Shown here piece after piece: positions 19,583 through 22,768 of a stretch of 64,000 nucleotides of DNA. The notes beneath the pieces were generated by a model. That model was given only the letters and a program-made list of their open reading frames with translations, did not search any database and was not told the DNA's origin. The DNA lies in contig JACKCR010000006.1 in NCBI GenBank assembly GCA_020633975.1, positions 267,873 through 331,872 on the forward strand. The letters run 5' to 3'. The number at the start of each line of letters is the position of its first letter. Within the stretch, counting starts at the first letter, position 1. The translations under genes and the position numbers were made by a program. Source of the stretch: Candidatus Eiseniibacteriota bacterium (GTDB lineage Bacteria; Eisenbacteria; RBG-16-71-46; CAIMUX01).

Positions 19583-22500
19583 CTACCGGAACAGCGCCTT
19601 CACCTTTCCCCAACTCGTCTCCTGGATCGGCACCGCTCCACAAGGGTTCAGCTCGACGCCGATTCCGATCGCCTGGGTCGGTCCCCACACGATGGAGACG
19701 TTGTTCCAGCCGGTCGGGTAGCCGATCCCCGGCGCGATGTTCGTGAGCGGACATCCACCGTAGCCGTCGAGGTCGGCGCCGACGAACCATCCCATCACCG
19801 CGTTCGGCCAGTTGCCCCAGTATCCGGCGAAGAGGCCGCCGTCTGCGCAGTTGGCGTTGATCCCGAACTCGTGACGGCTGAGCGAGGGCCAGAACGCGAT
19901 CGTGCTGGGGTCTGCGCCCGTACGGACACCGAGCACCGCCCCAGGCTGCCCACCGGCGCTTTCCCAGACGTAGAGGTCCATCGTCTGGCCCGCGTCGTTC
20001 CCGACCTGCGTCAGGTCGAGAATGATCGCGCAAACGAGACGCAGGGCGTTCTCGTACCCCTCGGCGAAGGCTCCATAGTAGGGAGCCACGACGCCCCCAT
20101 ACTGCCAAGCGTAGCCGTTCTCGTACGTACCGTCTGCGCTGAAGGCGAGTTCGCCGCATTGCGTGGTGGCATCGCCTTCGCGAGTCGTTACCGTCCCCGA
20201 TCCGCGTCCCGTCTCCGCGGCACACGGGACGCTGGCGTGCTCCGCGGCTTCGAGTACTTGGCTGCGTCGGGCGACCCGTTCCTCGATCGAGAGTAGGCTG
20301 GGACATCCTCCGCCACCGGTCGGACACGGGTTCGGGTAGCAGGGCGTTCCTTCGTGCAGAAAGAAGCCACCCTGTGCCGCACATTCCGACCGCGTGACGA
20401 AGATGCAGTTACCATACGCCAAGCAGCAGGCGCCGGGTTGCTCGACGCACGGGTTCGGGTCGCACGGTCGGTAGTCGCCTCGGTAAGTGCCACCGGAGGC
20501 GGTGCACTCCGCTCGAGTCAGGACGACGCACGTCTCCCCGATGCAGCACGCTCCGGTCGGCTGGGGACACGGGTTTGGCGAACAACTGGTGTCGTCGCCT
20601 TGGTAGTTCCCTCCGTTGCTCGCGCACTGTGACTCCGTGCGGACCAGGCAGGTTCCGTCCGTGAAGCAGCACGCTCCGACGATCGGCTGCGGACACGGGT
20701 TCGGAGCGCAGTAGACATAAGCGCCGAGGAACTCGCCACCCGCTGAGTCGCACTCTGGGATGGTCAGGACCCGGCAGGTTCCGTTCTCGAAGCAACACGC
20801 GCCGATCGGTTCCTGCGCCTGCGGGCATGGCGTGATCCCGTCCCGGAAGAAACCGAAGCTTCCGAGGCCTGCAATCTCATCGAGGAGCGAGGGAATACTG
20901 TCGTCGGCGAAGACTGCGCCCTGCGTTGGATGCGGAGCGAGTGCGAGTTCTCCTGGTTCCGCCGCGAGTCCGGACGCGAAGAACTGATAGACGGCCACGG
21001 CCTGGTCTGTCTGCGCGGTGGACCAAGTCATGGCCGTACCCGTGCCTGGCGAGGGCCAGTTCGCGTCCGCGATTTCGAAGTCGCCACAGGACTCCCAGTC
21101 TTCGAGCTGCACGCAGTCCGGAAAGTCGATCCCGAAGGTGAGCCCGAGAAGACGGGGCGCGGACTCCGAGGGGAAGAGCGCGATCGCGAAGATGAGAACC
21201 GGAGACTCCTGGTCGGTTCGTGCCACGATGTCCTGGCAGTCCTGGACTTCGCCGCCGAGATCACAGTCTGCGCGAAGGCCATCCTGTGAGTAGGCGACGT
21301 CGGGGCCGAGGTGGAGGACGAGCGTGCCGCCCCCGTTCGGTCCGAGCCGGTTCTCGGTGTTTGCGCTCGCCTCGAGGCTCGTTGGCTCGCTCGGATCGAC
21401 TCGACTCCCGGCCGACCGCGTTGCGGCTTTGCTCCTGGCCGTTCCTGTGAACGGATCGACGGGTGGAGTCGGACGGGTCGTGCTCGGTCGTCCTGCAAGA
21501 GCGAACGGTTCGCACGGCTGTACGCACGGGTTCGGAGCGCAGAGGATGCCGAGACCGAGGAACTCGCCGCCCTGGATCTCGCACGTCGACTCGGGGATAT
21601 ACTCGCACGAGCCGAGAGATAGACAGCACGCACCTTCCGTCGGCTGTGGACAGGGGTTCGGCTCGCAGAGCGTGTCGTTTCCTTGGTAGTTTCCGCCCGC
21701 GGAGTCGCACTCGTTCGGGCCAAGGTCTTCGCACACTCCGGTGGTGAAACAGCACGCACCGTGAGGCTGTGGACAGGGATTGGGTTCGCAGATGGTCTCG
21801 TCGCCTTGGTACATGCCGAAGGCGTGGTCGCACTGGGATTGGGTCGAGACCGTGCAGGAGCCGTCGTCGAAGCAACAGGCTCCGACGGGCGGCTGTGGGC
21901 AGGGGTTCGGGTCACAGGAGATACCTTCCTGCCACGCGCCGTTCGCGTCCTCACACGGACCTTGCCGGAGCAGTTGGCAAGAACCGTCCTCGAAGCAGCA
22001 GAGACCCGGCGGTTCGGGGCAAGCCAGGGACCCCTCGGTGTAGAAACCGAGCGATCCGAGACCGGCGATCGGATCGAGGAGCGCAGGTGTGGAGTCGTCG
22101 GCGAAGTACGCTCCCTGGGTCGGGTGAGGAATGAGCTCGATCCGGCCAGGCGATCCGTCCGCGGAGTAGGGAGCGAGCCAGCCGACCTCGACGAGCGGGT
22201 CTGTCTGCGTCTCGAACCAGACGACTGCGTTGCCACTTCCCGGTGACGGCCAGTCGTCCTCCGCGAGCTCGAAGTCTCCGCACATCCGCCAGGCGTCCAC
22301 GGCGAGCGTTGGGCCGTAGTCGATGCCGAAGACGATGCCCTTGAGGTGAGAGCCGGAGTCCGGGTAGAACGCCGCCAGGATGTGTGCGACGACCGGGCCG
22401 TTCTCGTCGACTCGCGTCGCGGCGTTACCGCATTCGGTGAGTCCGCCGAGGGTGCAGTAGTCATTGTCCGACGTGTACTCGAGCACGGTCTCGGCGTGGA

Positions 22501-22768
22501 CGAGCAAGGTGCCGCCGTCGTTTGCGGCTGGCGTGTCAGGGACTACGCCAAGGGTGAACGCGAATGCCGCAGCCGTCGGCACGACGAGGAGCACGGACGC
22601 GCTGAGGAATGCGGACGCGCTGAGGAATGCGGACACGCTGAGGACTACGGACGCCCCGCGCAACACGGATGCACCGAGGAATGCGGGGACGCGTGTGAGA
22701 GGACGACGAACGACTTGGATGAACGAATGGACGCGGTGGTGGGCGAAGGAGCGCGCGTGGAGCCTCAT
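19583..22768 (-). CDS. Secreted 1061-aa protein: duplicated about 230-aa N-domain, each followed by 4-5 Cys-rich about 32-aa repeats (GACC..G.C....EC...GG.Y.G....C.PNPCPQP), and a C-terminal domain ending in the same motif as the LTD protein
   Basis: ATG 22768..22766 with GGAGG 8 nt upstream; long signal peptide containing the SAFLSA repeat. Nine Cys-rich repeats visible in the ORF-track translation. C-terminus ...NPCGAVPIQETSWGKVKALFR, compare LTD ...NPTPVDRVSWGQVKGAYR. Confidence 0.7.
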   Translation of the reverse strand: MRLHARSFAHHRVHSFIQVVRRPLTRVPAFLGASVLRGASVVLSVSAFLSASAFLSASVLLVVPTAAAFAFTLGVVPDTPAANDGGTLLVHAETVLEYTSDNDYCTLGGLTECGNAATRVDENGPVVAHILAAFYPDSGSHLKGIVFGIDYGPTLAVDAWRMCGDFELAEDDWPSPGSGNAVVWFETQTDPLVEVGWLAPYSADGSPGRIELIPHPTQGAYFADDSTPALLDPIAGLGSLGFYTEGSLACPEPPGLCCFEDGSCQLLRQGPCEDANGAWQEGISCDPNPCPQPPVGACCFDDGSCTVSTQSQCDHAFGMYQGDETICEPNPCPQPHGACCFTTGVCEDLGPNECDSAGGNYQGNDTLCEPNPCPQPTEGACCLSLGSCEYIPESTCEIQGGEFLGLGILCAPNPCVQPCEPFALAGRPSTTRPTPPVDPFTGTARSKAATRSAGSRVDPSEPTSLEASANTENRLGPNGGGTLVLHLGPDVAYSQDGLRADCDLGGEVQDCQDIVARTDQESPVLIFAIALFPSESAPRLLGLTFGIDFPDCVQLEDWESCGDFEIADANWPSPGTGTAMTWSTAQTDQAVAVYQFFASGLAAEPGELALAPHPTQGAVFADDSIPSLLDEIAGLGSFGFFRDGITPCPQAQEPIGACCFENGTCRVLTIPECDSAGGEFLGAYVYCAPNPCPQPIVGACCFTDGTCLVRTESQCASNGGNYQGDDTSCSPNPCPQPTGACCIGETCVVLTRAECTASGGTYRGDYRPCDPNPCVEQPGACCLAYGNCIFVTRSECAAQGGFFLHEGTPCYPNPCPTGGGGCPSLLSIEERVARRSQVLEAAEHASVPCAAETGRGSGTVTTREGDATTQCGELAFSADGTYENGYAWQYGGVVAPYYGAFAEGYENALRLVCAIILDLTQVGNDAGQTMDLYVWESAGGQPGAVLGVRTGADPSTIAFWPSLSRHEFGINANCADGGLFAGYWGNWPNAVMGWFVGADLDGYGGCPLTNIAPGIGYPTGWNNVSIVWGPTQAIGIGVELNPCGAVPIQETSWGKVKALFR
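22596..22700. repeat. Imperfect 18-bp tandem repeat (about 5-6 copies, GCGGACGCGCTGAGGAAT-like) within the signal-peptide coding region of the Cys-rich protein gene
   Basis: Direct repeats seen in sequence. On the minus strand they encode SAFLSA SAFLSA SVLL in the h-region. Confidence 0.7.

Follow-up and report, generated by a model that had tools for sequence, protein, structure and literature searches.

The 64,000-nucleotide stretch of DNA analysed here (the window: positions 267,873 to 331,872 of the forward strand of contig JACKCR010000006.1, assembly GCA_020633975.1), from a Candidatus Eiseniibacteriota bacterium, encodes two putatively secreted proteins, the products of gene A and gene B, that share a tandem cysteine-rich repeat with the consensus GACCxxxGxCxxxxxxxCxxxGGxxxGxxxxCxPNPCPQP. 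This consensus agrees with the motif given in an original prediction that had been made from the letters of the window alone. The repeat forms a distinct family with a fold of its own; it is very abundant, is missing from the domain libraries that were checked, and recurs far beyond chance. The features of the two genes are as follows.

19583..22768, minus strand: gene A, a putatively secreted multidomain protein of 1061 aa, with the module order signal peptide, X1, four repeats, P/T/S linker, X2, four repeats, Y, C-terminal tag (open reading frame and domain map)
22559..22768, minus strand: gene A, N-terminal export signal, aa 1-70 (hydropathy and the N-termini of orthologues)
22594..22686, minus strand: gene A, 18-bp tandem repeat that codes for the (S)AFLSA units within the hydrophobic region (Tandem Repeats Finder, TRF: period 18, 5.2 copies, 78% matches)
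22013..22522, minus strand: gene A, domain X1, aa 83-252, a predicted cohesin-fold beta-sandwich
21509..22006, minus strand: gene A, repeat array 1, aa 255-420, four six-Cys units at 21896-22006, 21770-21883, 21647-21760 and 21524-21634 (hidden Markov model, HMM, E=5e-14 to 1.5e-17; AlphaFold2 model)
21353..21508, minus strand: gene A, low-complexity Pro/Thr/Ser/Arg-rich linker, aa 421-472 (read from the translation)
20819..21337, minus strand: gene A, domain X2, aa 478-650, a paralogue of X1 (BLASTP)
20306..20803, minus strand: gene A, repeat array 2, aa 656-821, four six-Cys units at 20690-20803, 20564-20677, 20447-20554 and 20321-20434 (HMM, E=9e-19 to 2e-15)
19640..20161, minus strand: gene A, domain Y, aa 870-1043, a recurrent module of about 175 aa (present in relatives)
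19586..19630, minus strand: gene A, C-terminal tag PIQETSWGKVKALFR-COOH, aa 1047-1061 (motif common to relatives)
59858..60808, plus strand: gene B, a small, putatively secreted protein: signal peptide, then four repeats, then a probable type IX secretion system (T9SS) type-A sorting domain (open reading frame, hydropathy)
60053..60505, plus strand: gene B, repeat array, four units at 60053-60163, 60167-60280, 60287-60379 and 60392-60502 (HMM, E=1e-14, 2e-13, 9e-7 and 8e-14)
60554..60799, plus strand: gene B, probable T9SS C-terminal sorting domain (TIGR04183 and PF18962, both below cutoff)

Repeats were scored with an HMM built from 129 diverse copies, nearly all of them from other proteins. 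The model finds eight units in gene A, in two blocks of four, with per-unit E values of 5e-14 to 9e-19, and four in gene B, the third of which (60287-60379) is degenerate at 17 bits; it finds no further copy in the six frames of the 64-kb window. The original prediction had put these numbers at nine and five, with a unit of about 32 aa and six to seven Cys per repeat, and on each of these points it needs correction: the period from one GACC to the next is 38-42 aa (34-35 aa from the CC pair to the last Cys), and each unit has exactly six Cys. All six are kept in 2589 of the 2609 repeats extracted from 220 family proteins. The other conserved positions hold only Gly, Pro and one aromatic residue, at a mean column identity of 37%; these residues are purely structural, which argues against a conserved ligand site.

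The ATG of gene A is preceded at 8 nt by GGAGG (22777-22781), and the same start was called for a protein 99% identical to the gene A product in an independent ENA assembly (P0001). Domains X1 and X2, each of about 170 aa, share 44% identity (BLASTP, E=1e-49), which bears out the earlier proposal of an internal gene duplication. Repeat-to-repeat comparison of the two blocks gives a weak diagonal only (A2-A6 at 66%); a one-to-one pairing of repeats across the two halves was rejected on this ground, and the weakness of the unit-by-unit correspondence suggests that the duplication is old. The order X, repeats, X, repeats, Y is common to the orthologues P0003 and P0004.

A word-indexed protein search with gene A returned 741 relatives, every one of them annotated as hypothetical or named for other domains; the best matches among those with names belong to Eisenbacteria. 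The search with an HMM that the original prediction had called for was then carried out exhaustively, with HMMER, using the 12 repeats of the window against 1.84 billion cluster representatives (clusters at 50% identity). It found 7316 representatives at E<=1e-3, 3638 at E<=1e-10 and 957 at E<=1e-30; the largest family proteins reach 4145 aa and 37 repeat units. For taxonomy, the inter-repeat junction PNPCPQPxGACC was back-translated and scanned against GTDB species genomes, a procedure that yields a sample of the distribution. Among the matches listed, most are from Phycisphaerales/Phycisphaerae, Planctomycetaceae/-ales and Candidatus Eisenbacteria, and a few are from metagenome-assembled genomes (MAGs) that carry the labels Myxococcota, Gammaproteobacteria, Nitrospiraceae, Lentimicrobiaceae and Polarisedimenticolia and, in one case, Halobacteria archaeon. 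The 403-kb contig CAVYIJ010000006.1 (L019), from a MAG labelled Halobacteria archaeon, contains two bona fide repeats at about 4088-4123; these could represent horizontal transfer or an error of binning or labelling.

Despite this abundance, Pfam-A (2025) and NCBIfam (2026) return nothing significant for the whole proteins, for single repeats (searched to E<=10) or for relatives with 30-37 copies, and full-text literature searches, including searches on cysteine-rich repeats of Eisenbacteria and Planctomycetes, found no description of the motif, so that the family still looks as undescribed as it did at first. The fold was modelled with AlphaFold2 for the first four-unit array of gene A, using 44 aligned arrays (mean pLDDT, the predicted local distance difference test, 96.2; predicted template modelling score, pTM, 0.69). 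In the model each unit comprises a beta-hairpin, formed by the CC strand and the GxC strand, then a helix of 5-6 residues, a third strand, and an extended PNPCPQP connector. That such a unit might be a divergent EGF-like, TNFR/NGFR cysteine-rich or CFEM domain, and hence not new, has some points in its favour: bacterial TNFR-like repeats are known (PMC10584675), Notch EGF4-7 appears among the Foldseek matches to the model at E=6-8, and CFEM matches one of the 12 repeats at E=0.015. The CFEM match, confined to a single sequence at a chance-level E value, was dismissed as chance; the EGF match has a Foldseek probability of 0.01; and neither EGF nor TNFR_c6 matches the repeat in Pfam at E<=10. 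A strong match of the EGF or TNFR type, which would have deprived the family of its novelty, is thus what the searches failed to produce, and membership in one of these known domains is very improbable.

The animal iRhom proteins are the exception to this lack of relatives. When the profile of the 12 window repeats was searched against 177,635 distinct PDB sequences, four matches were returned at E<=10, all of them to iRhom1 or iRhom2, at E=0.8 to 8. With the 129-repeat profile the same four sequences, and no others, score at E<=10, with iRhom1 at 1e-4 and iRhom2 at 4-5e-3. Profile positions 3-37 align to residues 201-236 of iRhom1 and 571-606 of iRhom2, the latter numbered as in 8snl chain B (hmmsearch), and the 129-repeat profile finds a partial second module upstream of the full one in the same domain. 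The bacterial repeat shares the Cys spacing and the aligned non-Cys residues of the iRhom module CCIGTKGxCEIT...C...C. Foldseek ranks iRhom1/2 chains as its top four matches, at E=0.02 to 0.55 and probabilities of 0.35-0.84, with the next matches at E>4. In 3000 shuffles of the iRhom module with Cys positions fixed, none reached the real score (26.9 and 28.3 bits, against a mean of 5 and a standard deviation of 4.6), and hhalign against three iRhom sequences only gives a probability of 84% and P=8e-6 over 37 columns.

The domain in question is the iRhom homology domain, to which a modelling study assigned 16 Cys, 8 disulfides and a novel fold (PMC10148629). According to the later cryo-electron microscopy paper on the ADAM17/iRhom2 complex its structure "appears to be unprecedented", no similar one being present in the PDB or among the human AlphaFold models (PMC11248996). 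From the profile, Foldseek, shuffle and hhalign results, taken with a fold reported to be unprecedented, we conclude that no known sequence is closer to the core module of this animal domain than the bacterial repeat, and the animal domain is in turn the only known relative that could be detected for the repeat. Both the sequence comparisons and the predicted structure suggest that the bacterial repeat is probably a remote homologue of the core modules of that domain. Convergence is a competing, less probable account of the resemblance, and one that concerns homology only: a short three-disulfide hairpin-helix with a like spacing of Cys would have arisen twice, in animals and in bacteria. In its disfavour, only iRhoms score at E<=10 among the PDB sequences, though many Cys-rich families are present there; the E value falls from 0.8 to 1e-4 as the profile is diversified; shuffles that keep the Cys never attain the real score; the same protein is ranked first by three methods; and the iRhom domain itself has another, partial module further upstream. 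As caveats to homology, absolute structural scores are low, a single protein family is concerned, and the methods are not fully independent.

What the repeat does is suggested by its contexts. Across the 220 family proteins, arrays between X and Y modules range from 1 to 13 units, and repeat number varies while module order is retained: four and four units in gene A, five and five in P0003 and P0004, two and two in P0012, nine and seven in P0009. Arrays join a wide range of unrelated domains, among them S8 and papain peptidases, P-domain, beta-helix, CARDB, multicopper oxidase, FlgD-Ig, fn3 and dockerin, and they occur also in proteins named as pectate lyases; the connectors consist largely of Pro, Ala and Gly. 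Because copy number varies, partners are diverse, the conserved residues are structural and the six Cys are invariant, a spacer fits better than a conserved binding site; judging from sequence and predicted structure, the arrays probably serve secreted proteins as stiff spacers that keep cohesin-shaped modules apart.

The proposed mechanism can be stated as follows. The gene A and gene B proteins would be exported, and the six invariant Cys of each unit would oxidise, presumably to three disulfides. The repeat would then be a small extracellular domain in its own right, with about 36 structured residues and the Pro-rich connector PNPCPQP, and head-to-tail arrays of it would form stiff, protease-resistant spacers between globular modules of secreted or surface proteins in Candidatus Eisenbacteria and Planctomycetota. 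In gene A the N-terminal signal would direct export, two four-unit arrays would set apart the two cohesin-fold modules and domain Y, and the short C-terminal tag would probably direct sorting or attachment; in gene B a single four-unit array would be carried on a T9SS sorting domain or anchor. All of these functional readings are drawn from sequence and predicted structure, and we assign the picture of an exported, disulfide-bonded, stiff spacer as a whole a probability of about 0.6.

Alternatively, the repeats could themselves be the functional part of these proteins and not passive spacers: arranged in tandem, they would bind or inhibit, for example as Kazal-like inhibitors of proteases or as modules that bind glycans or metals. 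This is unlikely, given the considerations above that favour a spacer over a binding site. As to Kazal-type inhibitor domains in particular, their Cys pattern is unlike that of the repeat, scores are at noise level, and no Pfam Kazal match to the repeat was found. Several points nevertheless count against the proposed mechanism. A spacer role is compatible with binding and does not exclude it; the pTM of the four-unit model is just 0.69, so the rigidity of the array is not supported by it; disulfide connectivity cannot be read from the model, and correlated loss of Cys across the 2609 repeats is uninformative as to pairing, the Cys being too invariant, so that the disulfide-knotted modules of the original prediction are no more than putative; and the relatives all come from uncultured MAGs or metagenomes.

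Export, the first step of the proposed mechanism, is suggested by the N-terminus of gene A, in which a basic n-region (aa 1-37) is followed by a hydrophobic stretch of 33 aa and then by AFA, immediately before FTLG; hydropathy on the Kyte-Doolittle scale climbs to 1.5-2.1 across aa 31-65. Both the n-region (37 aa) and the h-region (33 aa) are unusually long for a Sec-type signal, and n-region, h-region and AxA are all readable. Cleavage would occur after AFA. Orthologues of gene A have ordinary signal peptides that end right before GPNAGGTL. The original prediction had spoken of secreted proteins, and in this it is upheld by indirect signs, namely the hydrophobic N-termini, the near-threshold T9SS domain in gene B and the six invariant Cys. 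For the family at large, an extracellular location is likewise suggested by hydrophobic N-termini, T9SS sorting domains and the dockerin-like tails of planctomycetal members.

The coding sequence of the hydrophobic region is itself repetitive. TRF and hydropathy confirm at 22594-22686 the 18-bp tandem repeat that had been noticed in the h-region, and two perfect units at 22598-22633 encode SAFLSA-SAFLSA. The repeat had been proposed as a potentially length-variable site, and a length difference is in fact observed: contig k141_25120 of ERZ27309201, which comes from an independent metagenome and shares 99.2% identity with the window across 9 kb, has exactly one 18-bp unit fewer, with flanks identical except for one single-nucleotide polymorphism. 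By this exact 18-bp indel, closely related genomes are seen to differ in copy number without a shift of frame. Since the frame is kept, gene A cannot be switched off by the change, which may be neutral slippage or may modulate how efficiently the protein is exported. In other Eisenbacteria MAGs, the relatives P0003, P0004, P0012 and P0017 have N-termini that begin MRR and continue with runs of SAFASA-type hexapeptides of differing length, and this likeness indicates that the repeat-rich signal region is a lineage trait rather than a one-off.

Gene B occupies a maximal open reading frame from 59807, and its start is probably the ATG at 59858, which has GGAG 8 nt upstream. Its C-terminus scores 22.6 bits against TIGR04183, just below the threshold of 23, and 17.7 bits against Pfam PF18962, for which the cutoff is 27. 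The region of similarity lies at the extreme C-terminus, and the last 80 or so aa align with the TIGR04183 model end to end (positions 1-71 of 72). Relatives carry PF18962 or FlgD_ig tails; gene A itself has no such domain and ends instead in a 15-aa tag for which there is no model. Directly upstream of gene B is an 869-aa open reading frame (57125-59734, plus strand) that has the Ser/Thr kinase signature HRDLKPANIL and, beyond it, a long helical stretch; at locus L121 a kinase with TPR repeats likewise neighbours an orthologue of gene A.

Domain X, which the original prediction had put at about 230 aa, is by its predicted structure a cohesin-fold module, with the nine-stranded jelly-roll beta-sandwich that characterises cohesins. 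At the level of sequence, none of 38 X domains matches Pfam Cohesin (PF00963) at E<=1, and the profile search of the PDB returned no cohesin; a match of one X domain to GTP_cyclohydroI was dismissed as chance. Domain Y, with the motifs NADGTYENGYAWQYGG, GYWGNWP, VGADLDGxGGCP and NIAPGIGYPTGW, has no Pfam match and no PDB match beyond chance-level cupins (E about 0.05), and it is unrelated to domain X by BLASTP and hhalign. Among the 220 family proteins X occurs in 103, in one to three copies each, and Y in 51; in relatives, Y may be N-terminal, internal or C-terminal, and it typically adjoins repeat arrays.

The C-terminal tag of gene A belongs to a motif with the consensus P[TV]xxx[ST]WGx[IV]Kxx[FY][RHK]-COOH, found within a few residues of the C-terminus in 80 of the 220 family proteins, 74 of which carry X or Y. 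Either domain Y or a repeat may directly precede it, and the tag is therefore an independent element. Nor is it tied to the repeat family, because it also ends a protein of the window that lacks the repeat:

13896..14969, minus strand: lamin-tail protein, 357 aa, putatively secreted, with a signal peptide and lamin-tail domains, no Cys-rich repeat (PF00932, E=3e-11)
13899-13949, minus strand: C-terminal tag of the lamin-tail protein, PTPVDRVSWGQVKGAYR

The frame of the lamin-tail protein is open far upstream (17216/17648, high GC content), and its real start is probably the methionine of MMLQPTTT at 14969. The tag occurs also in loci L011, L015, L030, L036, L051, L081, L084, L088, L096, L101, L103, L105, L107, L116 and L119, and thus forms the end of many putatively secreted proteins in genomes of the Eisenbacteria type. 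No Pfam or NCBIfam model matches it, and no transmembrane helix follows it. Taken most simply, these sequence features make the tag a new candidate for a sorting or attachment signal.

A second kind of tail is found elsewhere in the family. Paired EF-hand, dockerin-like motifs occur in 15 of the 220 proteins, 14 of them without X and Y, and those members that have taxonomic names belong to Planctomycetota or Phycisphaerales. One relative has a near-threshold Pfam Dockerin_1 match, and the NCBIfam dockerin models gave no match on five dockerin-bearing relatives, so the evidence for dockerins consists of that one Pfam match and a motif regular expression. In a small sample and at the level of the motif, the regular expression for paired EF-hand dockerins matches neither the 64-kb window nor any of 13 Eisenbacteria loci, and it does match planctomycetal loci. 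Tag and dockerin-like motifs were never found in one locus among those examined.

One might speculate that the cohesin-fold X modules are receptors for the tag, which would then be a minimal analogue of a dockerin, and that gene A is scaffoldin-like, capturing tag-bearing secreted proteins or polymerising head to tail; we consider this a long shot. If true, gene A would capture, for example, the lamin-tail-domain protein at 13896-14969, and docking of X with the tag would yield a disulfide-stiffened, Eisenbacteria-specific surface assembly, parallel to a dockerin-based system of the same repeat family in Planctomycetota.

The gene neighbourhood of gene A yields no functional clue; with one orthologous locus, only the SpoIIE and glyoxalase genes are shared. 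In the window, a PD40/Tricorn-like beta-propeller protein is encoded downstream of gene A on the same strand (18462-19451, minus strand), and a SpoIIE-type PP2C phosphatase upstream in divergent orientation (22913-23944, plus strand). At the orthologous locus of another Eisenbacteria MAG (L120; GCA_041390305.1, JAWKQE010000005.1) the phosphatase is kept and the propeller is not, a glyoxalase gene is common, and the downstream genes differ. That locus encodes three gene A paralogues of 831, 784 and 1073 aa within 10 kb (2836-13222), beside the glyoxalase and SpoIIE genes, with a Peptidase_C39-domain protein at its edge. The window and contig k141_25120 of ERZ27309201 are collinear from 15582 to 24613 and then diverge, which is a strain-level rearrangement or insertion. 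Beyond the break, in that contig (L119, 1-760), lies the 3' end of a gene A paralogue, 77% identical and with the same tag; on the window side lies a lower-GC, AT-skewed segment (24-26 kb) with a multi-pass membrane protein (24799-25884).

Interest in this family is raised by a probable link to a medically relevant animal domain that had been thought unique, by cohesin-fold modules in an uncultured phylum and by a new tag. The iRhom homology domain controls ADAM17, and thereby the shedding of TNF and of EGFR ligands; if the homology is true, a bacterial relative would supply an evolutionary origin for the domain as well as a simple, expressible model of its core module. For annotation, more than 7000 clusters (at 50% identity) carry repeat units, often over hundreds of residues per protein, and a model of the repeat would annotate a substantial share of the "hypothetical" secreted proteins in two environmentally abundant, mostly uncultured lineages and make their architectures readable. 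The Eisenbacteria cohesin-fold modules, together with the new tag, point to an undescribed route of sorting or assembly, and the in-frame 18-bp change in a signal peptide is a natural case of length tolerance in export signals.

As a class, extracellular modules with six Cys that are repeated in tandem are well known. EGF-like and TNFR repeats likewise are of about 40 aa, have six Cys, form head-to-tail, rod-like spacers in secreted and surface proteins and vary in copy number among homologues, but their Cys spacing and secondary structure differ from the hairpin-helix-strand of the bacterial repeat. Cellulosomal scaffoldins offer a parallel for the placing of cohesin-fold modules along one chain. 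Their linkers are Pro/Thr-rich, whereas here disulfide-rich domains join the modules; and they bind dockerin-bearing enzymes, whereas no dockerin-like module is found in the window or in the 13 Eisenbacteria loci, cohesin-fold and dockerin-like modules of the present family falling mostly in separate proteins and separate phyla.

The closest comparison remains that with iRhom. Bacterial repeat proteins have no rhomboid Pfam match and are soluble multidomain proteins, without the setting between first and second transmembrane segments in which the animal domain is found. In the rhomboid-like iRhom1 and iRhom2 (RHBDF1/2), the stretch from TM1 to TM2 contains the iRhom homology domain as one extracellular globular unit of some 200 aa, with 16 Cys and 8 disulfides (PMC11248996, PMC10148629); besides large insertions, this domain comprises a complete module and a second, partial one. 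The bacterial unit, in contrast, is free-standing, with six Cys and a Pro-rich connector, and occurs outside any rhomboid context in arrays of 1-37.

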